Assembly (NCBI GenBank): GCA_026390595.1 | Contig: JAPLFQ010000032.1 | Location: forward strand, 28,215 to 92,214 | Source: Ignavibacteriales bacterium | GTDB lineage: Bacteria; Bacteroidota; Ignavibacteria; UBA10030 | DNA length: 64,000 nt | Direction of reading: 5' to 3' | Part shown: in pieces, positions 31,818-51,326 of the stretch | Numbering within the stretch: position 1 is the stretch's first letter | Layout: every line of letters starts with the position of its first letter | Program-made: the position numbers and the translations under genes | The notes under the pieces: model-generated | What the model saw: only the letters and a program-made list of their open reading frames with translations | What the model was told of the DNA's origin: nothing | Database searches by the model: none

Positions 31818-31981
31818 TTCTCGGGTCGTACAAGCCGGACTATTTGGACAGGCGCGGGCCGTCAGATCCCGGAGCTGTGGCGCCATCAGCTTCCCTCTTC
31901 CCTGAACATTCATCCGCTTCCGCAGTACCGCACTTCCGAGTACCGAGACAGAAAACACCGGCCTCTTTTTCAAATGCCCAT

Positions 31982-33274: not shown

Positions 33275-33295
33275 GCAGAACACATCAGTATGCAT

Positions 33296-33331
33296 CAAAA
33301 ACAAACGGGCGAGTAATCCTCGCCCGTTTTT
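33296..33331. terminator. Bidirectional rho-independent terminator between convergent DUF1343 and nagB genes
   Basis: AAAAACAAACGGGCGAG-taatc-CTCGCCCGTTTTT: a 9-bp GC-rich stem flanked by an A-tract and a T-tract. Confidence 0.75.
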
Positions 33332-33354
33332 CATTCCATCTGCTTCAGCCCCGC

Positions 33355-34167
33355 TTAACGAAGCAGAGTCCCAGGATCGAGATTCGGCGACTCGATATCC
33401 TTGAAATACTTCACCGTCCCAACCTTCAGCTCCAGCGTTGCCTCGTCGTCGGTGACGATGATGCCGTGCGGATGAAGCTGGAGGGCGCTCACCGTCCACA
33501 TGTGATTCACGCCGCCTTCGACAACGTTCGCCAGCGCACGCGCCTTCTTGTAGCCATTGATAATGATCAGCACTTCTTTCGCATCGAGGACTGTTGCCAC
33601 GCCGACGGTCAATGCAGTCTTCGGCACCTTCGCCGTGTCGTTGTCAAAGAATCGGGCGTTGGCAATAATCGTGTCCAGCGTCAGGGTCTTCACTCGTGTC
33701 CTTGAAGAAAGCGATGATCCCGGCTCATTGAATGCGATGTGGCCATCGGGCCCGATGCCGCCGAGGAACAGGTGGATGCCGCCGATCTTCTTGATCCGGG
33801 CCTCGTAGTCGGTGCATTCCTTCTCAAGGTCCTTCGCGTTCCCGTTCAGGATGTTGACGTTTTCCTTCTTGATATCGATATGCTTGAAGAAGTTGTTCCA
33901 CATGAATGAGTGGTAGCTCTCAGGATGATCTTCGGCGAGGTTGATATACTCGTCCATATTGAACGATACGACGTTTTGGAACGACACCTTGCCAGCCTTG
34001 TGCATTGCCACCAGTTCCTTGTAGGTTCCAAGGGGCGATGATCCGGTGGGAAGTCCAAGCACAAACGGCCTATCCGGCGCCGGGTTGAAATCGCGGATCT
34101 TGCGGACCACGTACGATGCAACCCATTTACTGACCAGATCATAATCAGATTGTATGATGACTCTCAT
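33355..34167 (-). CDS. nagB: Glucosamine-6-phosphate deaminase (copy 1)
   Basis: 270 aa with NagB motifs ([15 protein letters not shown], …[23 protein letters not shown]…). ~65% identical to the copy at 37851..38657. Confidence 0.9.
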
Positions 34168-34185
34168 GCGAGTTACCTGCCTTCC

Positions 34186-35568: not shown

Positions 35569-35663
35569 CGCTACTCCTCCTGTTGTGTAGAGTCATGGCT
35601 TCGCCCGTTCCCCCACCATTCACGCTGCCAACGCATTCACGGTCAGCCGGGGCACAGCGAAAC

Positions 35664-37658
35664 CTAGACAGTGCTTGATGCTATCAAGGCCCTGAATTGC
35701 TCTTTCCGCGTTCGAATCGCCGCTCCCTCTGCGGCAAGCTTCTGCACGACGCCGTTCGTCTCGATCGTGCCCCGAACGGCTTCAAAGTCCTTCTGCATAT
35801 CTTCGCCCGACTGATGAAGCCCGTAGCCGATCTTCGCGAAGGTACCGAATTCCTTCTTAGAATCTTCGATGATGATCCCCTGCAGCGATGTCGCGGCATT
35901 CTCCCAATCGTCCGCGGCCGCGAGCAGCTGATCCTTCGTCACATTCTCGAGCTGAATGCCGTACTCCTTCGCATACGCTTCATACACGTACTGCCATTCG
36001 TCAGTACGATATGCATCGTACATCGCCTGAAATTCCACAAGCAACGCCTCGTACGAGGACACCGCCCCCGCTGCGACACGTGTCTCGAGGGAAACCATTC
36101 GCTCGGACGGCGTCAACAGCCCGCTGATGTCGGTCCATTGGGCGGAGTGTTGGAGAATCGCCGCCGGTTTCAATGATGCCATCGCAGCGGACCAGTTCTT
36201 TTCATTTGTGAGTGCTTGCTGGATTCGCTGCATTACCTTGTCCTGAAGGTAGCGGGTGATCGCAAGAGAGTAGAACTTGGCCCCTTTTTTCAACAGCAAC
36301 CGGCTCAACTGTGCGCCACCGTAGGTCACGTACGATTTCTCCTTCGGAACGCTCACGCTGAGAGCAAGAAGATCGTCCCGTCCGCGTCTCATCTTCTCGA
36401 CGGTGTAGGGAGAAAAGACATCAAAGATAATCAGATCGCGTTTCTTCGGCGCCTTGCGGCCGTCACGTTTCGGCCATTTCTCTCCATCCCGCACGGTTCC
36501 GACCGACACCAGGTTCATGCCGGGAACAACCTTTGAATTTCCATCCTCTTCTGAAATATAAGAGAATGGGAGGTTCGGCAGGTCAAGGTTTGCATAGTGC
36601 TTGCCGATCACGACACTAAACGCCCCGATATGCGCTTCAAGCAGAAGATACGAGAACGAGCCGGTCTTCGATCCACGTTCGAGAATGCCCTGATGGACCG
36701 GGCCGAGCTTGTACATGTGATTGCTCTGGTTTGTCCCGCTCCCTGCATTATAGAAAGAGAACACTCCCGCAATCAGAAGTGTTGACTTATGGTGTGTGAC
36801 GGTATAAGGTCCGCCAAAGAGCGATACGGCCTCGCCGTGAAACGCTTCGCAATTCGCGAAGAACAGAGAATTCTCGGCGGAAAACTGCTTTCCCATCTTG
36901 ACGGCCTGACCGACAAAAACCTTGTCGAGCACCGCACCGCTTTCCACCCGGGCTCCTTCGGACAGGATGAACGATTTCGCCTGTACTCCCTCGCCAATCT
37001 CGGACGGATGTTCCGCACAGCTGTTGATCGTACCATTTTCGAGGAACTGCGTACCATGGACATTTGCTTTGACGCCGAAGTTCACGTTGTGAATCGTCCC
37101 ACAATGCACTATCCTCGCTCCGCTGCTGACGCGTCCCTTCTCTGCCTTGGCCTCCTTCGCTTTCGCTTCGACCAGTTCTTCGAGCTTTTTTGTGAATTCG
37201 GTGTTGTGCCGGATCATTCCCTGAACGTAGGCGGTCTGAGATGTGAGATCGTTGAGAATTCGGACGCCCCTCCCTCCCCCTTCATTGATCGTTTCGAGCT
37301 CGATCCCGTTGCCGAACGATGCCCCTGCATCAGCGACCAGAGCCGCGACATCTTGAATGAGGACGTCATTCTCTATAACGTAGTTCGCTACAACGGATCC
37401 GATATTCGCGATCCGCACATTGTCTCCGATGTCGCATCCGGCGATGGATGCCGAATAGATGCCGTTCGGCATTTCGATTGCGTCAACATTCTGCATGCCG
37501 CTCGTATCGCCGATACGGACGATTCCTGAAAAGTGCGCATTCCGTATTCTCGCCACGTCGCATCCCGGCGAGATAGTGATCTGCCCCCAGTCGGCTGCAG
37601 TGCAACCCTGTTGCACGAGAGTTTTCGTTTGTTCGTTGGTGAGTTGATGATATGTCAT
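35664..37658 (-). CDS. Large left-handed beta-helix (hexapeptide-repeat) protein, DUF4954-like
   Basis: ~660 aa with repeated hexapeptide-like segments (IGDNVRIANIGSVVANYVIENDVLIQDV…). The start is set at the internal Met MTYHQL, 17 codons downstream of the track ORF start (inferred; no RBS checked). I recognise no characterised function. Confidence 0.6.
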   Translation of the reverse strand: MTYHQLTNEQTKTLVQQGCTAADWGQITISPGCDVARIRNAHFSGIVRIGDTSGMQNVDAIEMPNGIYSASIAGCDIGDNVRIANIGSVVANYVIENDVLIQDVAALVADAGASFGNGIELETINEGGGRGVRILNDLTSQTAYVQGMIRHNTEFTKKLEELVEAKAKEAKAEKGRVSSGARIVHCGTIHNVNFGVKANVHGTQFLENGTINSCAEHPSEIGEGVQAKSFILSEGARVESGAVLDKVFVGQAVKMGKQFSAENSLFFANCEAFHGEAVSLFGGPYTVTHHKSTLLIAGVFSFYNAGSGTNQSNHMYKLGPVHQGILERGSKTGSFSYLLLEAHIGAFSVVIGKHYANLDLPNLPFSYISEEDGNSKVVPGMNLVSVGTVRDGEKWPKRDGRKAPKKRDLIIFDVFSPYTVEKMRRGRDDLLALSVSVPKEKSYVTYGGAQLSRLLLKKGAKFYSLAITRYLQDKVMQRIQQALTNEKNWSAAMASLKPAAILQHSAQWTDISGLLTPSERMVSLETRVAAGAVSSYEALLVEFQAMYDAYRTDEWQYVYEAYAKEYGIQLENVTKDQLLAAADDWENAATSLQGIIIEDSKKEFGTFAKIGYGLHQSGEDMQKDFEAVRGTIETNGVVQKLAAEGAAIRTRKEQFRALIASSTV

Positions 37659-37850
37659 AGAAGGACCGCGCGTGGTTTCAGTTTTGAATTCAGGAGAAAC
37701 GCCCAGCACGTTGCAGGAACGAGATCAACGGGAAATCTCTGCCGATGATCTGGCGGACATCACAACGATGGTACAAGATTCTACCAAAACAGCAATTGAA
37801 CTTCAAGAACAATCAGACGATGCGAACAGAAGCGCTCCGGACACCGGTGC

Positions 37851-38657
37851 TCACAACTCGGGCAATCCCATGTTTTCTTTTTCGATGTCCCTGAAGTACT
37901 TCACCGTCCCGACCTTCAGCTCCATTGTCGCCTCATCGTCGCAGACGATCATTGCATGCTCATGCAGCTGGAGCATCGAAACCGTCCACATGTGATTCAC
38001 TTCGTCTTCGAGTATCTTCTGCAAGGCCCGGGACTTGTTGAATCCGCTTATCACCATCACGATTTCCTCGGCGTCCATCATAGTCCCAACCCCCATCGTG
38101 ACCCCGGTCTTCGGTACCTTGTTGATGTCGTTTCCGAACCACCGTGCGTTTGCCGCCCGCGCACCGTGCGTGATAGTCTTGATGCGCGTCCGGGAGGAAA
38201 GCGACGATCCGGGCTCGTTAAAACCAATGTGCCCGTCCGGCCCGATGCTCCCGAGAAACAGGTGGATCCCTCCCGCCTTCTTGATGCTCTCCTCGTAATT
38301 CCTGCACTCAGCGTCAAAATCGGCGACGTTGCCATTCAGGAGCCGCACATTGTCGGGATTGATATCAATGTGGCTGAAGAAGTTGTTCCATAGCACCGAA
38401 TAGTGGCTCTGCGGATGGTCCTCGGGTATGCCCGCATACTCGTTGAGGCCAAATGCAACCACATTCCGGAACGTCACATTCCCATCCTGGTGCAGGCTGA
38501 TCAATTGCTGGTAGGTACCGACGGGAGACATTCCAGCCGGCAAACCAAGGACAAATGGCTTCTCCGCTGTTGGATTGAATTCCTTGATCCTCTTGGCGAT
38601 GTAGTACGCCGTCCACTTGCTCAATGCCTCGTAGCTGTCGTGAATGATGATTCTCAT
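37851..38657 (-). CDS. nagB: Glucosamine-6-phosphate deaminase (copy 2, paralog)
   Basis: 268 aa with the same NagB motifs ([38 protein letters not shown]). Stop is 18 nt from the upstream acyl-CoA synthetase gene. Confidence 0.9.
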   Translation of the reverse strand: MRIIIHDSYEALSKWTAYYIAKRIKEFNPTAEKPFVLGLPAGMSPVGTYQQLISLHQDGNVTFRNVVAFGLNEYAGIPEDHPQSHYSVLWNNFFSHIDINPDNVRLLNGNVADFDAECRNYEESIKKAGGIHLFLGSIGPDGHIGFNEPGSSLSSRTRIKTITHGARAANARWFGNDINKVPKTGVTMGVGTMMDAEEIVMVISGFNKSRALQKILEDEVNHMWTVSMLQLHEHAMIVCDDEATMELKVGTVKYFRDIEKENMGLPEL

Positions 38658-38675: not shown

Positions 38676-40808
38676 CTAGAGCATGATCCTGGCATCTGCG
38701 ACGAAACAACCGCCGCCTTCGTCATTCACAATCAGTGGATTAATGTCGAGCTCTTTGATCTCCGGAAAATCGGTCGCCAACGCAGCAAGGCGCTGGATCG
38801 CCTCCTCCACACTGCGAATATCACGCGGCTTTTTGCCCCGCGCTCCTGCCAGCATCGAATATGCCCTGATTTCCCGTATCATTTCAGACGCGGAACGAGG
38901 CCCCACAGGCGCAACGCGGAAACTGACGTCTCTGAATACTTCCACAAACAGTCCGCCCAATCCAAACATGATCACGGCCCCGAACGATGGGTCACGCTTC
39001 ACTCCCAGGATGACCTCTTCACCTTTCGAAACCATCTTCTGGATGTAGATGCCTTTAATTCGCGCGCCCGGCTTCGCCTTCTCGACGTTTTGCAGGATGG
39101 AATCATATCCCTCTCCCGCAGCCTCGGCGGTCCGTATATCCAGAAGCACTCCCTTGACATCGAACTTGTGCACGATGTCATCCGAATCGACTTTCATCAC
39201 AACGGGGAACCCGATACGCCCGGCGATACTGATCGCTTCCTGTCTCGACTTCGCGAGCCCCGATGGCAACGTCGGCAAGCCATACGCCTCGAGAATCGTG
39301 ACTGATTCTTCTTCGGGCAGATAGTTTCTGCCAGCGGCGATGGCGTTCTGAATGACGGCACGCGCCTTTTCTTTGTCCAATCCCGAAAACGTCTGCACTT
39401 CCTCGGATTTCGTATCGCGATGATGCTTGAAAAAGAGGGCGCTCGCATAGGCGCGGCACATCGACTCCGGAAGAATGTAATGCGGTATGCTGCGCTGCTG
39501 GAGGATATCGATACCAACCGCAACATCCTTCTCGCCCATGAACGACGCGTACGCCGGTTTGTCGAACTTCCCAACAGTGTCGCACACTTCTACGGCAATG
39601 TTCTCGATGTCCGTCATCGATTGCGGCGTCAGGATGACCAGTACTCCATCGACTCCCGGATCCTGCAGCGCTCCGCCCAGAGCCACCTTGTAACGATCGG
39701 CTCTGGCGTCCCCAATCACATCCACAGGGTTCTTGATGTTCGCTGTTGCCGGAAGGCTCTTCTTGTAGATCTCAAGTGTGGCATCCGAAAATTTCGCAAG
39801 CTGGAGATGCTGCTTGATTGCGGCGTCCGTTGCAAGCACACCCGGTCCACCGGCGTTCGTGATAATCGCGACGCGTTTTCCCTGGGGAAGCGGTTGGTAC
39901 GCGAGTGCGATTGCGTTGTTGAACATTTCTTCGATTGTCGTGCAGCGGATGATGCCGGCTTGCCTGAAGGCGGCATCGCATACCTCGTCGCTTCCAGCGA
40001 GAGAGCCTGTGTGAGAGGCGGCAGCTGCGGCACCTTCGCTTGTCCGGCCGGATTTCAAGATCAGTACCGGCTTTCCGGATTCGGAAATAATCTCCTGCGC
40101 TGCCTGCATGAGCGCGACACCGTCCGTGATCTCCTCGAGATAGACGAGGATGACTTTCGTCTTCGGATCGTTTTTCAGGTAACGCATCAGATCGATTTCG
40201 TTGATGTTCGCCTTGTTGCCGAAGCTGACGAACTTTGAGAAGCCGATGTGTTTGGCCTGAGCGTAGTCGAGGACTGCGGTGCAAAGGGCGCCGCTCTGAG
40301 AAAGGAACGCGATGTTTCCTTCCTGCGGCATCTTGCGAGCGAACGATGCATTGAGGTGAGAAAGCGGATCGGTGTTGATGACGCCGAGACAGTTCGGACC
40401 GATGAAGGAGATGTTGTGCTTCTGTGCGATCGCCTTGATCTCTTCTTCCCGCTGTTTGCCGGCCGCGCCGACTTCACGGAAGCCTGCCGATATAATGATC
40501 GCAGACTTGACTCCTTTTTGTCCGCACTGTTCGAGAGCCAGGTTGCAGACGCTGCTCGGAAACACGAGGATAGCGAGATCGACGGGATCGGGAATGTCGA
40601 TTACGTACTTGTATGCCCGCACGCTGGCCACCGAGCGTTCCTTCGGGCTGACAGGGTACACAATTCCCTGAAAGTTATCCTTCAGGATGTTCGCAAAGAT
40701 GTCGTGCGGCACAGTGCCGACGACACGGTTTGTGCCAAGGACGGCGACGGATTTCGGATAAAATACGTGCTCTAGGTCCTTCGCAGGCGGAACTGAAGTT
40801 TGAGACAT
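38676..40808 (-). CDS. Fused alpha/beta ADP-forming (NDP-forming) acyl-CoA synthetase
   Basis: N-terminal CoA-binding Rossmann domain (KSVAVLGTNRVVGTVPHDIF…), succinyl-CoA-synthetase-like ligase-CoA domain with a phospho-His loop, and a C-terminal ATP-grasp domain. 710 aa with no GNAT tail, so it is not Pat. Confidence 0.8.
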   Translation of the reverse strand: MSQTSVPPAKDLEHVFYPKSVAVLGTNRVVGTVPHDIFANILKDNFQGIVYPVSPKERSVASVRAYKYVIDIPDPVDLAILVFPSSVCNLALEQCGQKGVKSAIIISAGFREVGAAGKQREEEIKAIAQKHNISFIGPNCLGVINTDPLSHLNASFARKMPQEGNIAFLSQSGALCTAVLDYAQAKHIGFSKFVSFGNKANINEIDLMRYLKNDPKTKVILVYLEEITDGVALMQAAQEIISESGKPVLILKSGRTSEGAAAAASHTGSLAGSDEVCDAAFRQAGIIRCTTIEEMFNNAIALAYQPLPQGKRVAIITNAGGPGVLATDAAIKQHLQLAKFSDATLEIYKKSLPATANIKNPVDVIGDARADRYKVALGGALQDPGVDGVLVILTPQSMTDIENIAVEVCDTVGKFDKPAYASFMGEKDVAVGIDILQQRSIPHYILPESMCRAYASALFFKHHRDTKSEEVQTFSGLDKEKARAVIQNAIAAGRNYLPEEESVTILEAYGLPTLPSGLAKSRQEAISIAGRIGFPVVMKVDSDDIVHKFDVKGVLLDIRTAEAAGEGYDSILQNVEKAKPGARIKGIYIQKMVSKGEEVILGVKRDPSFGAVIMFGLGGLFVEVFRDVSFRVAPVGPRSASEMIREIRAYSMLAGARGKKPRDIRSVEEAIQRLAALATDFPEIKELDINPLIVNDEGGGCFVADARIML

Positions 40809-40826
40809 TGTACCTCCCCAGGTTGT

Positions 40827-41069
40827 CTACTTCAGATAGCCAGCGATGAATTCGACCGCGCCATCTACTGTCGCCACTTCGCGCGCCTTCTGCTCGTCCA
40901 TCTGTATGTTGAACTCCTCTTCGAACGCGGCGATAAGCTCGATGCTCTGCATCGAGTCGGCGCCGAGATCGAACGAGAAATTTGCAGTCGGCGTGATCTC
41001 CTTCACATCCACCTTCAATACCTGAGCAGTGATCTTCTCTACTCTCGCCTTGATCTCAGACTTATCCAT
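40827..41069 (-). CDS. Acyl carrier protein
   Basis: 80 aa with the phosphopantetheine attachment motif FDLGADSMQSIELIAAFEEEF. GGAGG RBS. 18 nt upstream of the acyl-CoA synthetase. Confidence 0.8.
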   Translation of the reverse strand: MDKSEIKARVEKITAQVLKVDVKEITPTANFSFDLGADSMQSIELIAAFEEEFNIQMDEQKAREVATVDGAVEFIAGYLK

Positions 41070-41131
41070 TGCTTTCCTCCATGTGGAACTTGTGAATATC
41101 GTCTAAATGTAATGGTGGGAATAACTTGAAC

Positions 41132-41159
41132 AATATACGTACCATCTTTGGCATCTCAA
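41132..41159 (-). promoter_or_regulatory. Candidate sigma70-type promoter for the ACP operon
   Basis: On the minus strand TTGAGA-16 nt-TATATT sits about 60 nt upstream of the ACP ATG, with a GGAGG RBS. Confidence 0.35.
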
Positions 41160-41869
41160 AGGAATAAGAGAAAAACGGCGGAATGCGGCAAAAGTTCGCA
41201 AAATCTAGAAATTTCCGGAGTGCTTTTCCAGAATTCCTTTCGCGGCCGACGCGGGCTGGGGAAGGCCGGATCCTTGCGTGCGCTGATAGGCTAGCAATAG
41301 TCCCCTCGGAGGCGGCTGAACCGGGCGGGCACGGCCGTCGCTCGATGGGATCCCCAGACGGCAGAAAGCCGCCGGAAATAGTCATGAGCTACCCTTTCAT
41401 GGGATTGACGGCGTTGCTCATTGAGAACGCCGTGCCTATCTAGGGACTCAAAGATACTGGGGGTGTTTCAGGGAGGGGAAATGGGGGAAAATCGTTGGAA
41501 CGGGGAAAGAGACCTTCTTGCAGTGCTCTCATGCCAAAGTTTGGTCAAAACCTGCTAGTATCGCGTCTCTGCAGTTGTCTGAATAAGTCCCGTCAGGGAC
41601 GAGATGTACATTGATTTGAAAACAAGCTGTTTTCCGAGAACTCCGTCAGGAGTGACATCTCAAATTATTCAAGGTACTTGCTAAACGTGACACTAGGAGA
41701 AAGAAATACCCGGGTTTCCTCCTGCAAGAAGGATGGGGTTGGGAAAAAAACCTAGATTCTGGAATACCTCCGGGTAGCCGCAGCGAAGCATCTCTTTCGC
41801 GGGTTCGGCTGGGGTGATTGCAGCATCCCTTCAAAGCACGCTGCAGCTACCAGCGGGAGGTGGTGGGAG

Positions 41870-42364
41870 TCAGTTGGCCGGACCTTGAATCCAGACGCCA
41901 CTGCTGTGTGAGACGGGTTGTTGAGATTCTTTGTCAGCAGGTTTCGTCAGAGCTTTTCGGACTTCGTTTTCTGTAATCACCAGCCTAAGGCCGGGTCTGT
42001 CCGCTTCGCTCCTGGGCTTTGCCATCTGCCAGATACTCGGCAATGCGCCAAAATATGATTTTCGAAACTCTTCCATCGTCATCCCTGTGGTATTCTTGAA
42101 GAGCCGGGCGCCGACATCTTCCCGCAAACCCAAATCGAGACAAATCACTTTGCAGAGAGCTTCCGACGTGAGAAGACGCTCCTTCATCCGGCATACCCTC
42201 GACTCCCGGATGTACCTGCTCAGGCTCACCTTCTCCGTTCGGTAGAACGATTGCTTCAATTTGTCGAGAGGGCAGTCTAGTTGTGTCGCAACCTGCTGGG
42301 CCTTTTTCAACGTGGTGAGGTTTGAAGAAACAAAGGACTTCACTTGAGGTATGTCGATCGTCAT
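41870..42364 (-). CDS. Small AraC-family HTH-only protein (no sensor/dimerisation domain)
   Basis: Internal start ATG 42364 preceded by AGGAGA with a 7-nt spacer. Two AraC-type HTH subdomains (…LSRYIRESRVCRMKERLL… and …ICLDLGLREDVGARLFKNTTGMTMEEFRK). The longer 246-aa track ORF is an extension. Confidence 0.6.
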   Translation of the reverse strand: MTIDIPQVKSFVSSNLTTLKKAQQVATQLDCPLDKLKQSFYRTEKVSLSRYIRESRVCRMKERLLTSEALCKVICLDLGLREDVGARLFKNTTGMTMEEFRKSYFGALPSIWQMAKPRSEADRPGLRLVITENEVRKALTKPADKESQQPVSHSSGVWIQGPAN

Positions 42365-42692
42365 GGCGGGATCTCCTGCGTAGTTGAGGATTGAGGGAGC
42401 GTGGATTGTGGAGCAGCGAGTCGTTTGCGAAGAGCCAAGGTCACACATGGTGCGATCCTTCGGTTGGACTGGAATGAACGATATGTTCGAAGCAGGATCG
42501 AAATGATGATCGGAGCTTCGACGATCAGGGGCGGGACTGACCAGTTGCCGGGTTGAGATCAGGAAGAACGAGGGACACCTTGACCGCCCATGCGAAAATA
42601 ATGAGGGCAAGAGTCAAAGTCAAGTTAAATTACGGAATATATCCGAGATATTGCGGAATCGGCCTGTAAACCGATTGGCATTTTTTTGAGGA

Positions 42693-43637
42693 CTATTGTT
42701 TTCGAGCTGTCGGGATACCGAGTCTCTTCATGCGATATCGCAACGTGTCTTCGGTCATCTTGAGGAAGCGGGCGGCTCGGCTTTGATTGAATTCGAACTT
42801 CTCCAGCGTGCGCATCAGGATCCCCTTCTCGATGATCTCCATCGCGTTGTCGAGCGCGAATTCCGCCCCCTCATCGATGCGCGTGATGATGCGCGAGAGC
42901 TCTGCCTGCTCATTGACGAGCCCGGCCGGGAGCCGGAACACCTCTTTGTCGTTCGACAGCACGATGCTGCGCTCGACCATCCTCTTCAGTTCCAGGACAT
43001 TTTCCTTCCACTCCTGGCGCACGAGGACACCGATGGCATTGGAATCGATGATCATTCCTTCTATCCCGAGATCCTTGCCAACCTGAGCGACGAAATACTC
43101 CACCAACTCCGGGATATCATCGCGCCGTTCGCGGAGCGGTGAGATCATTATCATTTCCCACCGCTTTGTCTCCTCAGTGACCCCGGGGAGAACTGTCCCC
43201 GCCTTCACCGCTGCCCCGATCGGACCTTGAAGCAGGAAAATCAGGCGCAAATCGCGCTTCTCTTTCCGGAGAAAGGCGAGGAGATCACACACCGAGCTCT
43301 GAGCTGTCAGCCCCGAGCGATCGATGTCTTCGAAGATCAACGTCGTACCATCAACCAATTTGAAATTCCCATGGTCCGGGGCGATCGGGTTGTAGAGCTC
43401 TCCGCTTTGCATGGCCAAATCGACCAACTTCCTCAGCCGGCTCGGATCGATGACGGCGATGTTCAAACGAACACATGGCTTCCTGGCATCCTTGCTCTCA
43501 TTATGTATGGCTTCGGCAGTCAATCCCTTGCCGACACCCGATTCACCGATGATTACGACGTCTTTCCTGCCACGAGCCAGTCTTTTCACATCTTCACGAA
43601 GTTGCCGCGTGGCCGGACTTGATCCTACGATCTGCAT
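42693..43637 (-). CDS. Enhancer-binding-protein-like AAA+ transcriptional regulator (sigma54-interaction-type ATPase core + Fis-type HTH), lacking a GAFTGA motif and any N-terminal sensory domain
   Basis: Walker A VIIGESGVGKG, Walker B / sensor region (GTTLIFEDID), arginine-finger region (RERRDDIPELVEYF), and C-terminal HTH (RAARFLKMTEDTLRYRMKRLGI). The GAFTGA loop is replaced by AMQSGELYNPIAPDHGN. Confidence 0.7.
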   Translation of the reverse strand: MQIVGSSPATRQLREDVKRLARGRKDVVIIGESGVGKGLTAEAIHNESKDARKPCVRLNIAVIDPSRLRKLVDLAMQSGELYNPIAPDHGNFKLVDGTTLIFEDIDRSGLTAQSSVCDLLAFLRKEKRDLRLIFLLQGPIGAAVKAGTVLPGVTEETKRWEMIMISPLRERRDDIPELVEYFVAQVGKDLGIEGMIIDSNAIGVLVRQEWKENVLELKRMVERSIVLSNDKEVFRLPAGLVNEQAELSRIITRIDEGAEFALDNAMEIIEKGILMRTLEKFEFNQSRAARFLKMTEDTLRYRMKRLGIPTARKQ

Positions 43638-43659
43638 AGTGCGAAACCTTTCATTTGTC

Positions 43660-44961
43660 TCATTCTGTACGCGCCTTCGTGACGTCTTTCGTCTGTACGT
43701 CCTTTGGCTGAATGAGAAACCTCTGGTCAAGCTCGTTCGGATTCATGAATTGCCGCAACACCCAGTTGTCGAATGCGTCGCGCCAGCGGGTGATGCGGGA
43801 GGCATCGGTCGCCAACCGAATCTCATAAAAGCGACCTTCAACACTTTGAATAAATCTAAGGCGTAAGATGAAAAGGAAGAGAAGCACGATCATGATTCCC
43901 GTTGAAAGGTACATCCCAAGATGCGCGAACGCAGCATAGGCATCCCATTGCCGAACCGTTGTGAAGGCGTAGTGGTGAAGGGCTTCACAGGAACAAAACA
44001 CCAGAAGGCACCAGAGAATTTTTTCAAGGTACGCGCTCTTTGGAGGATCTGCTATGAATTGGTAAATAATGAAAACGAGTATACAACCTATTAGTAGAAG
44101 CGATATCAACACGCAACTCCTCCATAGCGGCCTGTAAACAAGCAGATATACGGCATCACCCTGACAATATGGCCACAATTCCAAAACTCGAGCCTCCTTA
44201 GCCCGAAGGACATCCTGATTCTCTGGGCGAATCCCAATCGTCAAGGGTGCGACGGACGCAATCAACGCTAAAGATGGTCGCTCCATCCCATCCTGATGAA
44301 GCTCTTGAGTCGCAAGTTGGATAGCTTTGTAGTCCTTAATATCCGTTGTTGTGTACAAGTATTTCGGGTTGGCGTAGTATGCATAGAACAAGGATATCCA
44401 TATGGTTCCGACGACAGACACAGCGATGAAGTACTTTAGAGGCAACCTCAGTTTCTGAAAGCTCAAATGAACGACAAGGAAAACCACACTCACGGCTAGC
44501 AACAGGAAATACAATTGCGTTCGGTATTGGTGCTCATAGAAACCAGCCCACGTATCAAGCGGAAACCACCACAGCTTTGCCAATTGGTACAGTTGAGTCC
44601 AGAACCCATTTATGAAGAAGACGACGGCGAGATTCACGAAAAGGGCTCTGATCTCAGGTTGGGCTTCCTTCTTAGAAAGGATCCATGAAACACTTCCGAC
44701 CAAGGCACTGGCCTCTGCAAGAACGATTACGCACACACGGTCGATACCATCCGCACTCATCGCCATCACTCCTGCGAAGTTGATGACTGCGAAGGGACAC
44801 CACATCATCAAGATTTTCTTGTAGAGTCTCATTCCTTGAAATAGGCCTGAGCCCGCTCCTTTAATAAGAAAATCGAAACTCGGTGTATCCGTCCACAGGA
44901 AAAAAAGGGTATTCATGAGCACAGCACCCCACCTGTCACTCCGAGTATACACCTTTTTCAA
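43660..44961 (-). CDS. Polytopic membrane protein (≥10 predicted TM helices), unknown family; first gene of the operon with the EBP-like regulator
   Basis: Strongly hydrophobic 433-aa ORF with no enzymatic motifs I recognise. Its stop is 22 nt upstream of the regulator start. Confidence 0.6.
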   Translation of the reverse strand: MKKVYTRSDRWGAVLMNTLFFLWTDTPSFDFLIKGAGSGLFQGMRLYKKILMMWCPFAVINFAGVMAMSADGIDRVCVIVLAEASALVGSVSWILSKKEAQPEIRALFVNLAVVFFINGFWTQLYQLAKLWWFPLDTWAGFYEHQYRTQLYFLLLAVSVVFLVVHLSFQKLRLPLKYFIAVSVVGTIWISLFYAYYANPKYLYTTTDIKDYKAIQLATQELHQDGMERPSLALIASVAPLTIGIRPENQDVLRAKEARVLELWPYCQGDAVYLLVYRPLWRSCVLISLLLIGCILVFIIYQFIADPPKSAYLEKILWCLLVFCSCEALHHYAFTTVRQWDAYAAFAHLGMYLSTGIMIVLLFLFILRLRFIQSVEGRFYEIRLATDASRITRWRDAFDNWVLRQFMNPNELDQRFLIQPKDVQTKDVTKARTE

Positions 44962-44990
44962 AACTCAGTCAAGAGTTTTTCCGACTACTT

Positions 44991-45029
44991 TCCGAGATAT
45001 CTCGGATAGCGATTTGCAATTCGAATCGC
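44991..45029. promoter_or_regulatory. Operator-like palindromes in the divergent intergenic region
   Basis: Perfect 16-bp palindrome TCCGAGATATCTCGGA (44991-45006), followed by the inverted repeat GCGATttgcaattcgaATCGC (45009-45029). Confidence 0.4.
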
Positions 45030-45275
45030 AACTGGAGAATTTCAGCGAAGGACTCTCCTCACCGAGCCGCCTCTCTCACCCATTGTCAATTCCAGCAATA
45101 GCAAAAGACCCTTCGATTCTTGAGAAGCGAATCTGGGAATCCTCCCATTTCTGCGAGCAAAGGATCGAACACTGCGAAAATTATGCGATTGTTGAAGATG
45201 TCCCCAATGGCATATTTCTTGACAATCGTGGCTGTCAGACATGAAAACGTCCATCCTTGGAGAGGCAGAGTAAAC

Positions 45276-45731
45276 ATGGTCGCAGAAGAACCAGTGTATT
45301 CCATTGGCAGTGTCGCCAGAATGCTTGGCGTATCAGTTTTCACGCTCAGGATGTACGAGCGTGAAGGACTGATCATCTCCCACAAATCCAACACAAAACA
45401 CAGACGCTACAGCCAGAACGACGTCGAGCGGATCAAATGCATCCGCCGCGCCATCACTGAACTGAAGTTCGGCATAGCCGGCGTCAAAGGAGTCTATGCC
45501 CTTATCCCCTGCTGGAGCATCGTCAACTGCTCCGCAGAAGACCGGGACAATTGTGCCGCATACAAGGGACACTCAAAACCATGCTGGACGCACAAACACG
45601 AGTCCAATACATGTTCCTCCAGGGTCTGCAGGCAGTGTCCAGTGTATCAGAAACTGACAGATTGCGCAAAAGTAAAAGAGAGCATATTGCTCGCCTCACA
45701 GCAGTCGCAAGCATTCACTCCTCATCCATGA
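45276..45731 (+). CDS. MerR-family transcriptional regulator with a C-terminal 8-Cys domain
   Basis: MerR HTH (YSIGSVARMLGVSVFTLRMYEREGLI) and coiled-coil region. The C-terminal cysteines are spaced C-x5-C-x6-C-x8-C-x9-C-x4-C-x2-C-x8-C. The start is set at the internal ATG; the track ORF 45120 start is an extension. Confidence 0.7.
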   Translation: MVAEEPVYSIGSVARMLGVSVFTLRMYEREGLIISHKSNTKHRRYSQNDVERIKCIRRAITELKFGIAGVKGVYALIPCWSIVNCSAEDRDNCAAYKGHSKPCWTHKHESNTCSSRVCRQCPVYQKLTDCAKVKESILLASQQSQAFTPHP

Positions 45732-45735
45732 GGGC

Positions 45736-47934
45736 ATGATGAATTCGATTTCCCGAAGACGATTCCTGAAAATCTCCGCAGCGACCGTCAGCCTCGCGGC
45801 CGCCGGATGCGCGACCAAGTCTGGAACATCAAGCCTCGGCGCGAAGGAGAAAAAGAATGGGATCCAGAAAATCCCGACCTATTGTGATATCTGCTTCTGG
45901 AAGTGCGGCGCGATTGCGTACGTCAAAGACGGTGAACTGTGGAAAATCGAAGGCAACCCGGATGATCCGCTCAGCCGCGGACGCCTTTGCCCGCGGGGCA
46001 CCGGCGGCATAGGCGCTCACACAGACCCCGACAGACTCCGCACACCGCTGATCCGCAAACGCGAGCGAGGTGAAGAAGTGTGGCAGGAAGTCACCTGGGA
46101 TGAGGCGCTGGGATACATTGCCGACAAGATGCAGAAGATCAAATCCGAATACGGACCGGAATCGATGGCGCTCTTCAGCCACGGTATCGGCGGCAACTTC
46201 CTGAAGCACACAATGAAAGCATACGGAACTCCGAACATCTCAGCCCCCTCCTTCGCCCAATGTCGCGGACCCCGCGATGTCGGATTCCGCCTCACCTTCG
46301 GCGAGGACGTCAGTTCGCCTGAACGGACGGATATCAAGAACGCCCAATGCCTGGTCCTGATCGGAAGTCACCTCGGCGAGAACATGCACAACTCCCAGGT
46401 CCAGGAGTTCGCTGACGCGATCGACAACGACGCTTCAATCATCGTCGTCGACCCGCGTTTCTCCGTTGCCGCGAGCAAGGCCAAGTGGTACCTCCCCATC
46501 AAGCCGGGGACCGATCTCGCTTTGCTTCTTGCGTGGATGAATGTCATCGTGAAGGAGAATCTGTACGACAAAGAGTATGTGACAAAACACGGATTCGGTT
46601 TCGAACAATTCGCAGCCACACTCCTCCCCTACACACCAGAATGGGCATATCCCGAAACAGGAATTGAACCAGAAGTCATACGCGCTACCGCCCGCGAGAT
46701 GGCGCGATACAAGCCGGCAACGCTCGTCCATCCGGGAAGGCACGTCACCTGGTACGGCGACGATGCACAACGCAGCAGAGCCATCGCACTGCTCAACGCA
46801 CTCCTTGGAAGCTGGGGACGCAAAGGAGGATTCTACTATCCCGTCAGCATGGACGTTCCGGCATATCCATATCCTGCCTATCCGAAGCCGGCAAGAGACA
46901 AAGTCGACAATCCGAATCACAAGTATCCTTTCGCGCATGAGACAATCACCACCGGCACCCGCGATGCTACAATATCCGGCCAACCGTATCCCATTAAAGG
47001 CTGGTTTGTTTATGCGTCCAACCTGATTCACGCACTTCCAAACGAGCAGGAGACGATCAAGGCTATCCAGAACCTCGACCTTCTCGTCGTGGTCGATGTG
47101 ATACCGAGTGAAATTGCCGGATGGGCGGACGTCGTTCTCCCCGAAGCTGTCTACCTCGAGCGGCACGACGATCTCAACGTGGAGTGGTTCAGGGATTCGT
47201 TCACAGCCCTGCGTCAACCGGTCGTCGAATCGCCTCACGATCAGAAACCGAACTGGTGGATCGCAAAGCAGCTCGCCGGGAAACTTGGCCTCAGCAGCTA
47301 TTTCCCCTGGAACGATATCGAGGAGTATTTCAAGCACCGCCTTACCGCAGCCGGACTCGATTACGATGAGCTCAGGCAAAAAGGGATCATCAGGGGAAAG
47401 AAACAGCCCAATTACTTCGAAGAAGGGGTGCCTATTGAATTCCCCACTCCTTCGGGAAAGATCGAATTCTACTCTTTGCAGCTCCAGAAGGCAGGGTTCG
47501 ACCCGGTCCCGAGATATACAAAGCCCGATCCGAATCCCCCCGGATCGTTCCGACTCCTCTACGGCCGCTCACCCGTTCATTCGTTCAGCAGGACGCATTC
47601 AAACAGGATTCTCTCCGATATGATGTCTGAGAACGAGGTATGGGTCAATGCTTCCGTCGCAGGAAGGCTGGGATTGCAGAACGCCCAGTACGTCACGCTG
47701 AAGAATCAGGATGGAGTCGTCAGCAATAGAGTGAAAGTGAAGGTGACTGAGAGAATCCGGCCGGACTGCGTGTATGTTGTCCACGGATTCGGCCATACGT
47801 CCAAAGGACTTAAACACGCCTTCCGCAAAGGTGCAAGTGATGCGCAACTGATCACCAGGTACAAGACTGATCCGCTCATGGGAGGTACGGGAATGAACAA
47901 CAATTTCGTCACCATCGAACCGGCGGAGGCGTAA
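45736..47934 (+). CDS. Tat-exported molybdopterin (bis-MGD) oxidoreductase catalytic subunit, PsrA/PhsA/TtrA-like
   Basis: Twin-arginine signal (SRRRFLKISAATVSLAAAGCA), N-terminal 4Fe-4S motif CDICFWKCG…C, and the DMSO-reductase-family MGD-binding core. 732 aa, typical of the polysulfide/thiosulfate reductase class. Confidence 0.85.
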   Translation: MMNSISRRRFLKISAATVSLAAAGCATKSGTSSLGAKEKKNGIQKIPTYCDICFWKCGAIAYVKDGELWKIEGNPDDPLSRGRLCPRGTGGIGAHTDPDRLRTPLIRKRERGEEVWQEVTWDEALGYIADKMQKIKSEYGPESMALFSHGIGGNFLKHTMKAYGTPNISAPSFAQCRGPRDVGFRLTFGEDVSSPERTDIKNAQCLVLIGSHLGENMHNSQVQEFADAIDNDASIIVVDPRFSVAASKAKWYLPIKPGTDLALLLAWMNVIVKENLYDKEYVTKHGFGFEQFAATLLPYTPEWAYPETGIEPEVIRATAREMARYKPATLVHPGRHVTWYGDDAQRSRAIALLNALLGSWGRKGGFYYPVSMDVPAYPYPAYPKPARDKVDNPNHKYPFAHETITTGTRDATISGQPYPIKGWFVYASNLIHALPNEQETIKAIQNLDLLVVVDVIPSEIAGWADVVLPEAVYLERHDDLNVEWFRDSFTALRQPVVESPHDQKPNWWIAKQLAGKLGLSSYFPWNDIEEYFKHRLTAAGLDYDELRQKGIIRGKKQPNYFEEGVPIEFPTPSGKIEFYSLQLQKAGFDPVPRYTKPDPNPPGSFRLLYGRSPVHSFSRTHSNRILSDMMSENEVWVNASVAGRLGLQNAQYVTLKNQDGVVSNRVKVKVTERIRPDCVYVVHGFGHTSKGLKHAFRKGASDAQLITRYKTDPLMGGTGMNNNFVTIEPAEA

Positions 47935-47936
47935 CC

Positions 47937-48476
47937 ATGGGGCGATTTGGAATGGTCATCGATACTGTGAAATGTGTCGGATGCATGGATTGCGTGGTTG
48001 CCTGTAAGACTGAGAACGAAGTTCCAGAAGGATTCAATCGTGACTGGATCGCACAGGACGTCACCGGCTCCTTCCCCACACTCCACATGGAAATCCGAAG
48101 CGAGCGATGCAATCATTGCGACGCTCCCCCCTGTGTGTACTGCTGCCCGACGGGAGCGAGTCACGTTCACAGCCTGGGCGGTGTAGTCCTCGTGGAACAC
48201 GGGATGTGTATCGGCTGCAAGGCCTGCCTTGCCTCCTGCCCCTATGACGCGCGGTTCATCCACCCTGATGGATATGCCGATAAGTGCACGTTCTGCATCC
48301 ATAGAGTGGAAAAGGGTTTGGATCCGGCGTGCGTCTCCGTTTGCCCGACTCATTGCATGACATTCGGCGACCTCGAAGATCCGAACAGTTCCGCGAGCAA
48401 GCTCCTCGGCTCAAGGAAGTACCACTCTTTGATTCCTGAGGCTGGCACAAAACCACAAGTGTACTATCTCACATAG
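47937..48476 (+). CDS. 4Fe-4S ferredoxin-type electron-transfer subunit (PsrB/PhsB/NrfC-like)
   Basis: Four Cys clusters (CVGCMDCVVAC, CNHCDAPPCVYCC, CIGCKACLASC, CTFC…C…C). Confidence 0.85.
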   Translation: MGRFGMVIDTVKCVGCMDCVVACKTENEVPEGFNRDWIAQDVTGSFPTLHMEIRSERCNHCDAPPCVYCCPTGASHVHSLGGVVLVEHGMCIGCKACLASCPYDARFIHPDGYADKCTFCIHRVEKGLDPACVSVCPTHCMTFGDLEDPNSSASKLLGSRKYHSLIPEAGTKPQVYYLT

Positions 48477-48484
48477 AGGACTGT

Positions 48485-49435
48485 ATGCACGAACTCACAA
48501 CTACGAGGCACAACGAGCTCGTCGATCCCGTCCTGCAGATCTGGGCATGGCAGATTCCTGTGTATCTGTTCATCGGCGGACTCGTCGCCGGGATCATGAT
48601 CATCTCCGGTTACTTTGCCCTCAAGGGTCAGTACAAGAAGAACATGTTCACAAGTTTCTACCTGCCTCACATCAGCCTCGTTCTGCTGAGCCTGGGTATG
48701 TTCTCGCTATTCCTCGATCTTGAACACAAACTGTACGTCTGGAGACTCTACACCACATTCAAGATCATGTCGCCGATGTCCTGGGGAGCATGGATACTGA
48801 TTCTCGTGTACCCTGCTCTCTGGTTGAACACACTCATCCGCATTCCGGATGCATACAAGAATATCATCCCCGTGTTTGACCGCCTGAGTGCCAGAATCAA
48901 CCAACATCCATTCTTGATCAAGAGCATTGGCACTCTCAACATGCTCCTGGGCACACTCCTTGGCATGTATACCGGCGTGCTCCTGAGTTCGATCGCCGCA
49001 AGGCCTCTCTGGAACAGCTCTATGCTTTGGATGGTGTTTCTCGTTTCCGGACTCTCGGCTGCGTCCGCGTTTGTGCACCTTGTCGCGCGCGACCCGGAAG
49101 AACGACTGTTACTCGCCAAAGCAGACAACGGCTTTCTGACCCTCGAGCTCTTTGTGATCGGCGGCTTCGTCAGCGGCTTGCTGAGCTCGACGGGAGTTCA
49201 TTCCGAAGCAGTTCTGCTCATACTCGTCGGACCGTACGCCCCAGCGTTCTGGGTGGGCGTCATCGGACTCGGCATCATCATCCCCTTGATCATTCAGATG
49301 CTGGCAGTGAACGCCAGAGTCAAACATACATCGGCAGCTCCCATTATGGTCTTGTTTGGCGGACTTCTGCTCCGCTTCGTCATCGTGTATGCGGGGCAAT
49401 ACAGCCACTACACGCATCAGGCACTATCAAGATAG
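48485..49435 (+). CDS. NrfD/PsrC-family quinol-oxidising membrane anchor subunit
   Basis: 8-TM protein with an NrfD-type N-terminus (VLQIWAWQIPVYLFIGGLVAG). Confidence 0.85.
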   Translation: MHELTTTRHNELVDPVLQIWAWQIPVYLFIGGLVAGIMIISGYFALKGQYKKNMFTSFYLPHISLVLLSLGMFSLFLDLEHKLYVWRLYTTFKIMSPMSWGAWILILVYPALWLNTLIRIPDAYKNIIPVFDRLSARINQHPFLIKSIGTLNMLLGTLLGMYTGVLLSSIAARPLWNSSMLWMVFLVSGLSAASAFVHLVARDPEERLLLAKADNGFLTLELFVIGGFVSGLLSSTGVHSEAVLLILVGPYAPAFWVGVIGLGIIIPLIIQMLAVNARVKHTSAAPIMVLFGGLLLRFVIVYAGQYSHYTHQALSR

Positions 49436-49495
49436 TACTCATTCCACTTCAACGCTGATATTCCAGGATTGATTCGAGAATCGGAGGACCAACAA

Positions 49496-50074
49496 ATGGC
49501 AACAGCAAACGAAATAGGTCTCAGTGAGTCCAAGCTTCGCACGGGGGGGCACACAGAAAGGACAGCGCAGCCGTACTGGAACCCGTACGTCGCAGGGCTT
49601 GGACTTGGGCTTGTGCTGCTCGCTTCATTCGTGATCATGGGACGCGGCTTGGGGGCATCCGGTGCATTCTCATCCCTCGTGACGGTCGGTGTCCAGGCTG
49701 TGGCACCGAATCACGTGGCTGCTAACGAATTCTATTCTGAATACGTCGGCGACGGATCAAAAAGTCCATTGAAGGACTGGCTTGTCTTCGAAGTGCTCGG
49801 AGTGTTCGTCGGCGGGTTCATCTCAGGATTGCTCGCAAATCGGGTAACAAAAGTGGTCGAACGAGGGCCCAACATCAGCAGCGCCGGACGGCTGACGCTC
49901 GCGTTCATCGGTGGAGGATTGATGGGGATCGGAGCGAAGCTCGCCCGCGGCTGCACAAGCGGCCAGGCGTTGACCGGCGGCGCCCTGTTCAATGTCGGCA
50001 GCTGGGCTTTCATGATGATGGTATTCGCCGGCGCATATGCTACGGCATACTTTGTAAGGAGACAATGGCAATGA
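49496..50074 (+). CDS. YeeE/YedE-family sulfur-compound transporter, N-terminal half (split gene)
   Basis: Conserved Cys loop (GAKLARGCTSGQALTGG) in a 4-TM half-protein. Start ATG 49496 follows GGAGGA. The track ORF start 49469 gives a 9-aa longer product. Confidence 0.75.
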   Translation: MATANEIGLSESKLRTGGHTERTAQPYWNPYVAGLGLGLVLLASFVIMGRGLGASGAFSSLVTVGVQAVAPNHVAANEFYSEYVGDGSKSPLKDWLVFEVLGVFVGGFISGLLANRVTKVVERGPNISSAGRLTLAFIGGGLMGIGAKLARGCTSGQALTGGALFNVGSWAFMMMVFAGAYATAYFVRRQWQ

Positions 50075-50670
50075 ACGCACCCTTCTTCAAATTTGGTTTA
50101 TTTGGCGATGACGTCAGTCTCGTCGTCGCATTCGTCATTGGAATCGGGTTCGGCTTCTTCCTCGAGCGGGCCGGATTCGGCAGCTCAAAGAAGCTTGCCG
50201 CACAGTTCTACTTCACCGACCTCACCGTCTTCAAGGTAATGTTCACGGCGATCATTACCGCTATGGTTGGTGTTTACTACCTTTCCGTAGTCGGTTTCGT
50301 CGATCTTTCACTCGTCTATCTGACACCCACCTTCCTGGTCCCTCAAATCGTCGGAGGTCTGATCCTCGGCGTCGGGTTCGTTGTAGGCGGATACTGTCCG
50401 GGAACATCGTGCGTCGCTGCATCGACGGGACGAGTTGACGCGATGGTCTACCTCCTGGGAATCGTTTTCGGGATTTTCGTTTTCGGCGAGGCGATCCCGT
50501 TGGTAAGCACCTTCTATCTCTCGACACCGATGGGCCAGATCACGCTTCCACAAATCTCCGGCCTCCCGTACGGTTTGATCGTGTTCCTTGTTGTGCTGAT
50601 GGCTCTGGGGGGATTTGCCGGAGCAGAGTGGGTTGAGAAGAAAATGGCGGCAAAGAAAGCGAGGGCCTGA
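50065..50670 (+). CDS. YeeE/YedE-family sulfur-compound transporter, C-terminal half (split gene)
   Basis: Second conserved Cys loop (GVGFVVGGYCPGTSCVAAS). It overlaps the first half by 10 nt. Confidence 0.75.
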   Translation: MAMNAPFFKFGLFGDDVSLVVAFVIGIGFGFFLERAGFGSSKKLAAQFYFTDLTVFKVMFTAIITAMVGVYYLSVVGFVDLSLVYLTPTFLVPQIVGGLILGVGFVVGGYCPGTSCVAASTGRVDAMVYLLGIVFGIFVFGEAIPLVSTFYLSTPMGQITLPQISGLPYGLIVFLVVLMALGGFAGAEWVEKKMAAKKARA

Positions 50671-50672
50671 TC

Positions 50673-51326
50673 ATGAAAAACCTCTTCACTGATCTCTCCC
50701 TGAACAGAAAGCTTGCCCTCTTCGTGTTCGTCCTGGGATTCCTGGCTTTATTCGCTGGAAGCCCGTACAGAGGAACGGAGCTGAAAGTCGACGCCTCTGA
50801 GATGGCAATGATCGTCCAGAAGGAAGTTGATCATGTCTCTTCTGAAGAACTGGCCGGCTGGATTGTTCAAGGGAAGGCCGATTATCGTCTTCTCGACCTG
50901 CGTACCGAGAAGGAGTTTGGCGAGTACCACATCCCAACTGCGGAAAACATGCAGCTGACGAACTTGAAAGAGGCCCAGCTGGGCAGGAATGAGAAGATGG
51001 TCTTGTACTCTGACGGGGGGATTCACTCCGCACAAGCCTGGTTTCTCCTGAAGGCCGAAGGGCACAAGGGAGTCTACATACTGCGCGGCGGGTTGGAGGA
51101 ATGGAAAGACAAAATACTCTTTCCACGACTTACCGATAACGCTTCGCCGGCCGAAGTCGCGGCGTTCGAGAAGACCAGACTCTTGAGCAAATTCTTCGGG
51201 GGATCCCCGCAGGTTGGAGGCGCTGCACAGACCACCACGCAGACGATGACGCTCCCGAAACTCGAATCCCCTACGGGAGCACAACCCAAGACAACTCCGG
51301 GAAAGAAGAAGAAAGAGGGCTGCTGA
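50673..51326 (+). CDS. Membrane-anchored rhodanese-like domain protein; active-site Cys replaced by Ser, probably non-catalytic
   Basis: Rhodanese fold (VSSEELAGWIVQGKADYRLLDLRTEKEFGEYHIPTAENM…MVLYSDGGIHSAQAWFLLKAEG…RGGLEEW). YSDGG occupies the position of the canonical Y-C-x-x-G active-site loop. The C-terminal tail is low-complexity (T/Q/K-rich). Confidence 0.7.
   Translation: MKNLFTDLSLNRKLALFVFVLGFLALFAGSPYRGTELKVDASEMAMIVQKEVDHVSSEELAGWIVQGKADYRLLDLRTEKEFGEYHIPTAENMQLTNLKEAQLGRNEKMVLYSDGGIHSAQAWFLLKAEGHKGVYILRGGLEEWKDKILFPRLTDNASPAEVAAFEKTRLLSKFFGGSPQVGGAAQTTTQTMTLPKLESPTGAQPKTTPGKKKKEGC

Follow-up and report, generated by a model that had tools for sequence, protein, structure and literature searches.

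We analyzed a 64,000-nucleotide (nt) stretch of DNA from an Ignavibacteriales bacterium (GenBank assembly GCA_026390595.1, contig JAPLFQ010000032.1, positions 28,215 to 92,214 of the forward strand; the whole stretch is called the window hereafter), in which three consecutive minus-strand open reading frames (ORFs) span 41870-44961. They encode, in order of transcription, a membrane protein with eight predicted transmembrane (TM) helices, a regulator resembling the enhancer-binding proteins (EBPs) of sigma-54, and a small AraC-like protein. In the public annotation the first (390 amino acids, aa) and the last (164 aa) are hypothetical proteins, and the second (314 aa) is a 'sigma 54-interacting transcriptional regulator'. 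The reading we favor, to which we give a probability of roughly 0.55 as a whole, is that this is a sigma-54-independent module, in which the regulator acts on the palindrome TCCG-N8-CGGA at two sigma-70-type promoters and is gated in trans by the 8-TM protein. A first-pass annotation made from the sequence had singled out these three genes, and all three proved to be real; several of its other claims had to be revised, as described below.

The regulator looks, from its domain content, like a descendant of EBPs. Its Pfam domains are Sigma54_activat (57 bits, covering positions 1-117 of 168 only), AAA_lid_14 and HTH_8 (44 bits). These matches, together with an alignment to NifA, NtrX and three canonical EBPs with a REC domain (P0190, P0195 and P0199), bore out the AAA+ core with Walker A motif GESGVGKG and the Fis-type helix-turn-helix (HTH) of the first-pass annotation, as well as its statement that REC (receiver), GAF and PAS input domains are all missing: nothing precedes the AAA+ core in the protein, and family members are all about 314 aa long. 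Walker A is kept across the family. The pattern of degenerate motifs, in turn, holds over 70 family members. At the position of GAFTGA (the L1 loop), re-alignment placed GELYNP in the window regulator and [GR]EFxNPxxxxHGxF across its clade (clade A), and a canonical GAFTGA, whose replacement had been claimed before, was not found; other residues stand in for the Thr, Gly and Ala, and in the window copy Leu additionally takes the place of Phe. Eight residues of the L2/pre-sensor-I insertion are deleted with respect to the three canonical EBPs, the DE of Walker B is ED in the window (EE, DS, DG or EH in relatives), the AATN motif of sensor I is gone, and the sensor-II Arg is lost, NVREL reading NVLEL in the window, with L or Q in the clade. 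Both arginine-finger (R-finger) residues of FREDLYYRL align to Leu and Glu. With these losses, the 'R-finger region' that had been listed among the preserved features does not stand.

The regulators form a tight clade, with identities to the window protein going from 85% down to 38%; below this value, matches are REC-containing EBPs at about 33%. Within-clade identity is 68-85%, and a second, more widespread clade (clade B) is about 38-40% identical. Clade B retains the Walker B Glu and the sensor-II Arg, and is likewise devoid of GAFTGA (GVEGLP) and of R-fingers. The C-terminal HTH_8 region is extremely conserved, and so is a family-specific linker between lid and HTH, FRLPxxLVxEQAELxRI, which includes a 7-residue insertion with respect to canonical EBPs. 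An AlphaFold2 (AF2) model of the regulator reached a predicted local distance difference test (pLDDT) of 85, L1 being its least confident stretch, and its closest fold was that of Brucella NtrX, a protein without GAFTGA, followed by ZraR, NtrC1, FleQ, VpsR and PspF.

NtrX is one of a set of atypical EBPs (Brucella NtrX, V. cholerae VpsR, E. coli TyrR and DhaR, R. capsulatus HupR and NtrC, and Caulobacter NtrC) that have in common with our regulator an AAA+ core, a Fis-type HTH and a defective L1; VpsR and the window protein also both have a non-consensus Walker B. Atypical EBPs of known architecture carry an N-terminal input domain, be it REC, ACT/PAS or GAF. Unlike them, the regulator family has no input domain and has an obligate adjacent 8-TM partner, and it has also lost L2, the R-fingers and sensor I. 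GAFTGA-defective EBP homologues act with sigma-70, as reported for TyrR, DhaR, HupR, VpsR, NtrX, HsfA, PhhR, R. capsulatus NtrC and Caulobacter NtrC (PMC3162934; PMC6158489; 10.1101/2023.06.06.543975), and the window regulator would likewise act at sigma-70-type promoters. VpsR is known to carry an N-terminal input domain, and it has been suggested that atypical EBPs may link sigma-54 to sigma-70 activation in evolution, the control of most of them being still open (PMC6158489). The regulator fits an atypical, sigma-54-independent type of EBP, more degenerate than the published GAFTGA-defective examples, and the family flags the 'sigma-54-dependent' annotation of these proteins as a systematic mis-annotation. 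Nothing in the searchable literature describes this family.

The association of the regulator with the membrane protein is conserved. In the window, the stop codon of the membrane gene (TGA, 43662-43660) and the regulator ATG (43637) are separated by the 22-nt gap on which a common operon had been proposed, and a ribosome-binding site (GAAAGG) lies inside it. Scanning GTDB species representatives with a membrane-protein profile yielded 71 loci, all of them in metagenome-assembled genomes labelled Ignavibacteria, Ignavibacteriota, Bacteroidota, Chlorobi or 'uncultured Chitinophagales/Chitinophagaceae', and the module appears specific to Ignavibacteria-type bacteria. By ORF calling, the regulator immediately adjoins the membrane gene on the same strand in 63/70 loci, and tblastn found it at each locus having downstream sequence (as a partial copy only in L062), so that the pairing put forward in the first pass is conserved in relatives wherever it is assessable. 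The same pairing came out when regulators of different subclades served as the starting point. Over about 75 related Ignavibacteria-type loci, essentially each one has the pair. Membrane-regulator pairs are duplicated in tandem in L005 and L079, and the order is regulator-membrane-membrane in L053, L060 and L077.

The membrane protein belongs to a novel family, with no previously assigned family or fold. It has no Pfam or NCBIfam family match, and its AF2 model (pLDDT 87.5; predicted template-modeling score, pTM, 0.84) has no meaningful fold match in the PDB; the earlier remark that it is of no recognizable family, transporter or other, held by sequence and by fold. The family is narrow (79 matches in 5.8 billion proteins). 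A profile search of 1.84 billion representatives returned 190 proteins, all of 409 aa or less, and none in which the 8-TM domain is fused to a kinase or another output. Model and hydropathy profile give eight TM helices arranged as 5 + 3, rather than the ten or more first counted; TM5 and TM6 are separated by an insert of about 80 aa, predicted to be extracytoplasmic by the positive-inside rule. Conservation is highest in a cytoplasmic tail of about 60 aa (ITRWRDAFDNWVL), in which R324, F327, G333, E337, T348-R-W-R-D352 and D355 are invariant. Within the TM helices, Y103, E283 and H286 are invariant and E56 nearly so. Two other likenesses were discarded: that of the model to G-protein-coupled receptors is a non-specific resemblance of 7TM bundles (E >= 0.05, meaningless), and a TssN match (18 bits) was found in just 1/44 family members.

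The lack of an input domain makes it most likely that control of the regulator comes in trans, from the 8-TM protein with which it is co-transcribed. The main rival reading is that the regulator senses the signal itself, through a nucleotide or second messenger held in its degenerate AAA+ domain, and that the 8-TM protein is co-expressed cargo (an enzyme, a transporter or an envelope factor). The fully kept Walker A in a protein that has lost its catalytic residues does suggest ligand binding without hydrolysis, and there is a precedent in the atypical EBP VpsR, which requires cyclic di-GMP for transcription activation (PMC6158489). A role as cargo would also suit the invariant polar TM residues of the membrane protein, which could form a catalytic or transport site, and a mirror-tree analysis in which no specific co-evolution was seen. 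Yet the conservation of the membrane protein peaks in its cytoplasmic tail and not in the TM core, and no transporter or enzyme family or fold was matched. Moreover, the membrane family stands beside this regulator family in every locus examined and is never domain-fused, pairs duplicate as units, and the pairing outlasts changes in gene order. We regard self-sensing with a membrane cargo as unlikely, though it deserves to be kept in sight.

Two predicted promoters of the sigma-70 type, P_mem for the membrane-regulator operon and P_araC for the AraC-like gene, are each preceded by a predicted operator (O1 and O2, respectively; Table 1). O1 and O2 are the sole two TCCG-N8-CGGA matches in the 64-kb window, and each ends 18 nt upstream of a -35 hexamer, its center falling near -64. 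In almost every related locus, a TTGAC[AT]-N17-TAnnnT element precedes the membrane gene. The composite arrangement TCCG-N8-CGGA-N18-TTGAC recurs in L001, L003, L006, L007, L008, L010 and L063, and with one mismatch in L009, and in clade-A loci it is found at both promoters. When six clade-A P_araC regions were aligned, the operator, an extra TCCG half-site and the -35 hexamer were almost wholly invariant and a -10 element of the TTATCNT type was conserved as well, while the 5' untranslated region (UTR) diverged.

The distribution of the operator points to the EBP-like protein as its ligand. In L053, L060 and L077, which have no AraC-like gene, two copies flank the module, one ahead of its promoter and the other immediately beyond it, and the regulators there share the recognition helix TEDTLRYRMK. 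In clade B the recognition helix is TEQTFRYKLKR and the palindrome is absent. The operator thus tracks the EBP-like HTH, since it is present with TEDTLRYRMK even where the AraC-like gene is missing and absent where the helix is another, and we predict from this pattern that the regulator is the protein that binds it. Could the AraC-like protein, or a MerR-like protein encoded divergently from the operon, bind TCCG-N8-CGGA instead, the EBP-like protein having other targets? The operator does lie upstream of the AraC-like gene, where it could serve autoregulation, and the window, L001, L006 and L063 all have the MerR-like gene oriented divergently from the operon. But the operator persists in L053, L060 and L077, which have neither gene, and in L003, which also has no MerR, and it vanishes where the recognition helix of the EBP-like protein changes. 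The sites of MarA-type monomers are asymmetric, and those of MerR proteins lie between the -35 and -10 hexamers; the site here, a symmetric 16-mer at about -64, is unlike both. Another operator binder is, in our judgment, improbable.

The first-pass annotation had called the system possibly sigma-54-independent, and this is now supported beyond its own argument. L1, L2, the R-fingers and the catalytic Glu are degenerate, the promoters are predicted to be of the sigma-70 type and have a conserved upstream operator, and the window has no more -24/-12 matches than chance would give (47 TGGCAC-N5-TTGC sites found vs 57 expected), with none at the operator-linked promoters. A literature search for rpoN in Ignavibacterium returned no papers. 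That the regulator is a conventional, PspF-like, sigma-54-dependent EBP under negative control in trans, as the public annotation implies, can be given very little credence: it would account for the PF00158 domain, the PspF-like architecture of AAA+ plus HTH and the Gly and Phe of GAFTGA that most clade-A members retain (GEFYNP), but not for the replaced Thr, Gly and Ala (and the Leu for Phe in the window protein), the deleted L2 insertion, the missing R-fingers, sensor I, catalytic Glu and sensor-II Arg, the truncated Pfam match (1-117 of 168) or the lack of a -24/-12 element at the operator-linked promoters, and substitutions of the central Phe or Thr of GAFTGA abolish activity (PMC3162934).

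The 164-aa gene had been described as an HTH-only AraC fragment and as a co-equal part of one module. Instead, it encodes a member of a conserved MarA/SoxS-like family of about 74 members with a C-terminal extension, and it lies outside the operon, 328 nt downstream of the regulator stop, with its own predicted, operator-linked promoter; it makes better sense as a gene under the transcriptional control of the regulator than as an equal partner in the operon. Its ATG (42364) is preceded by an AGGAG ribosome-binding site, and the homologue in L003 starts at the equivalent position. With the single sequence, HTH_18 scored 26.6 bits, below the Pfam threshold of 33.6 bits, and a search of the PDB gave no match; the family profile alone reached MarA (E = 0.01 over residues 3-101), and it matches RamA and SoxS too. 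Homologues carry a precomputed PF12833 match. The family is narrow (74 matches, mostly of about 164 aa), and its C-terminal extension of about 60 aa is conserved. In every locus examined the gene lies directly downstream of the clade-A module, and the genes that usually follow it, which are also found in the window, encode an acyl carrier protein (ACP), an ADP-forming acyl-CoA synthetase, NagB and DUF4954.

In the model that we favor, the regulator, having lost the L1/L2 loops and the residues for ATP hydrolysis, would act as an ordinary DNA-binding transcription factor, probably as a dimer or higher oligomer and possibly still binding nucleotide. It would bind TCCG-N8-CGGA near -64 of two sigma-A promoters (TTGAC-N17-TAnnnT), exerting feedback on its own operon at P_mem and governing at P_araC the expression of the small MarA/SoxS-like protein. 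The latter would then control the adjacent cluster of ACP, acyl-CoA synthetase, NagB and DUF4954 genes, in a two-tier cascade like SoxR-SoxS. As the presumed signal-input partner, the 8-TM protein would sense through its TM bundle or its extracytoplasmic loop, and its conserved cytoplasmic tail, in what we infer to be a physical contact, would hold or release the regulator or alter its oligomeric state. Activation is slightly favored as the sign of regulation because the predicted site lies upstream of the -35 hexamer. A more specific proposal, which we advance tentatively and at less than even odds, is that the pair represents a hitherto unrecognized, phosphorylation-free signaling architecture: an 8-TM receptor of novel fold would directly gate, via its tail (ITRWRDAFDNWVL), a domainless pseudo-ATPase EBP, with the linker FRLPxxLVxEQAELxRI perhaps as docking site, and the architecture would have expanded into paralogous cognate pairs like those of two-component systems.

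Several observations weigh against the favored model or parts of it. The Phe of GAFTGA is retained in most clade-A regulators, which read GEFYNP. The mirror-tree correlation between membrane protein and regulator is r = 0.75, vs 0.81-0.87 for the membrane protein with unrelated neighboring genes; this comparison gives no co-evolution signal beyond shared phylogeny and is uninformative. The tail is modeled at low confidence, with a pLDDT of about 46-63 past residue 340. The promoter count over the window (5, vs 3.3 expected from shuffled controls) is not above the controls, and hence the promoter calls rest on conservation. As for the sign of regulation, the -35 hexamers are near consensus, so the promoters may need no activator and repression is equally possible; NtrX is a repressor (PMC6158489). 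Lastly, no common auto-operator was found among clade-B modules, which have CRP/FNR-like sites instead.

Known systems offer partial parallels. In PspF-PspA(-PspBC) and HrpRS-HrpV, the regulator likewise consists of just AAA+ and HTH, and control in trans by a separate membrane-linked partner is what we presume here. PspF and HrpRS are, however, true sigma-54 activators with GAFTGA, and PspA and HrpV are soluble or peripheral and not homologous to the 8-TM protein, for which Pfam and fold searches gave no match, so that the analogy is functional only. The cascades SoxR-SoxS and MarR-MarA, in which a sensor-linked regulator controls a small HTH-only protein of the AraC family without ligand domain, follow a logic similar to that proposed here, with a MerR- or MarR-like regulator on top where here it would be EBP-like; in contrast to MarA and SoxS, the 164-aa protein has the extra conserved tail of about 60 aa. 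In Mlc-PtsG, a polytopic membrane protein sequesters a transcription factor, PtsG being a transporter of a known family. The same logic, contact of a cytoplasmic segment with the transcription factor, is proposed for the 8-TM protein, with a hypothetical contact and a protein of no recognizable family.

The features are collected in Table 1. The membrane gene starts at ATG 44832, in agreement with the NCBI annotation, and homologues all align from that Met; the protein is thus 390 aa long and not 433 aa, as first proposed. TTG 44961 falls within the predicted promoter of the operon.

Table 1. Genes, promoters and predicted operators of the module (positions in the window).
Feature	Position	Strand	Basis
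Membrane protein gene (390 aa, 8 TM helices)	43660..44832	-	ORF, homologue alignment, model; no family or fold match
EBP-like regulator gene (314 aa; degenerate AAA+ and Fis-type HTH, without N-terminal input domain)	42693..43637	-	Pfam, alignments, AF2 model
AraC-family gene (164 aa, MarA/SoxS-like; two predicted HTH subdomains and C-terminal tail of ~60 aa)	41870..42364	-	
P_mem, predicted sigma-70-type promoter of the membrane-regulator operon, TTGACT-N17-TATACT	44944..44972	-	Promoter scan, 10/12 matches
P_araC, predicted sigma-70-type promoter, TTGACT-N17-TATTTT	42595..42623	-	Promoter scan, 9/12 matches; conserved in six-locus alignment
O1, predicted operator: perfect 16-bp palindrome TCCGAGATATCTCGGA	44991..45006	.	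Upstream of P_mem
O2, predicted operator: TCCGCAATATCTCGGA at 42642-42657 (minus-strand reading), with conserved extra TCCG half-site 5 nt downstream	42633..42657	.	

Other elements were seen around these features. Just upstream of O1, in the intergenic region common with the divergent MerR-like gene (45120-45731, plus strand), lies an 18-bp imperfect palindrome, TTGCGATTCGAATTGCAA (45014-45031), which may be a site for another regulator. Directly 3' of the stop codon of the AraC-like gene there is an element of about 105 nt (41757-41865, minus strand), kept in all clade-A loci at 75-93% identity (L001 9766-9880, L071 1932-2046, L009 8979-9093, L003 9693-9805, L007 8887-9000). It contains a long-range stem of 13 bp, GGTAGCCRCAGYG / CRYTGYGGCTACC, in which pairs change in a compensatory way (GC to AU, UA to CG), has an RNAalifold energy of -27.6 kcal/mol and no Rfam match, and is a candidate structured 3'UTR element or small RNA. 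An Rfam scan of 40000-46000 gave only matches at chance level. PADLOC showed merely generic AAA-lid/HTH similarity to models of the RtcR/PspF type, and a defense system was discarded.

Farther downstream, a sigma-70-like promoter, TTGAGA-N16-TATATT (41132-41159, minus strand), precedes the ACP gene (40827-41069) in a block conserved with L001 and L071; it is a possible target of the AraC-like protein. The sequence TGGTACGTATATTGT, which weakly resembles a -24/-12 element and overlaps the -10 hexamer of this promoter, is probably there by chance. The region 26193-38657 is rich in amino-sugar and glycan genes (two NagB-like, DUF4954/DUF6819, HMGL-like, NamZ exo-beta-N-acetylmuramidase, GH38 alpha-mannosidase and amidohydrolase), a setting that suggests a tie of the clade-A module to glycan or cell-wall sugar metabolism. 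On the other side, 45120-51326 (plus strand) encodes a MerR/HspR-like regulator, a molybdopterin oxidoreductase, a 4Fe-4S protein, an NrfD-like protein, two YeeE/YedE sulfur-transport halves and a rhodanese, together a Psr/Phs-like polysulfide or thiosulfate reductase cluster. This cluster occurs in L001, L006, L063 and L080 but not in L003, and it seems to be an insertion between the aldose epimerase gene and the module in the window lineage.

Clade-B loci have a setting of their own. Upstream and on the opposite strand (e.g. L015, L024, L029 and L041) there are genes for a PorV-like protein, a BNR-repeat protein, a lipoprotein, an M50 site-2 protease and a small tandem-repeat secreted protein; the membrane-regulator pair comes next, and then a GT2 glycosyltransferase gene converges from downstream. 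The setting is related to the envelope or to exopolysaccharide. In OY970334.1, the only pair seen was one of clade B. Some 40-140 nt ahead of the TTGAC in the promoter of the clade-B membrane gene (e.g. in L042, L022, L051 and L041) there are palindromes of the CRP/FNR type, TGTGA-N6-TCACA, among them TGTGATGCATCTCACA and GGTGATGCGCATCACC, suggesting that the widespread clade-B paralogue is under the control of the CRP/FNR family.

The regulators of this family would be an extreme case of atypical EBP, without input domain, sigma-54 loops or ATPase residues, and yet highly conserved and tied to a membrane protein. If the partnership is true, it would represent a new coupling of membrane sensing to transcription and would give a role to a family of uncharacterized proteins that occurs across Ignavibacteria. 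With an operator predicted, the regulon of the regulators can be tested directly.

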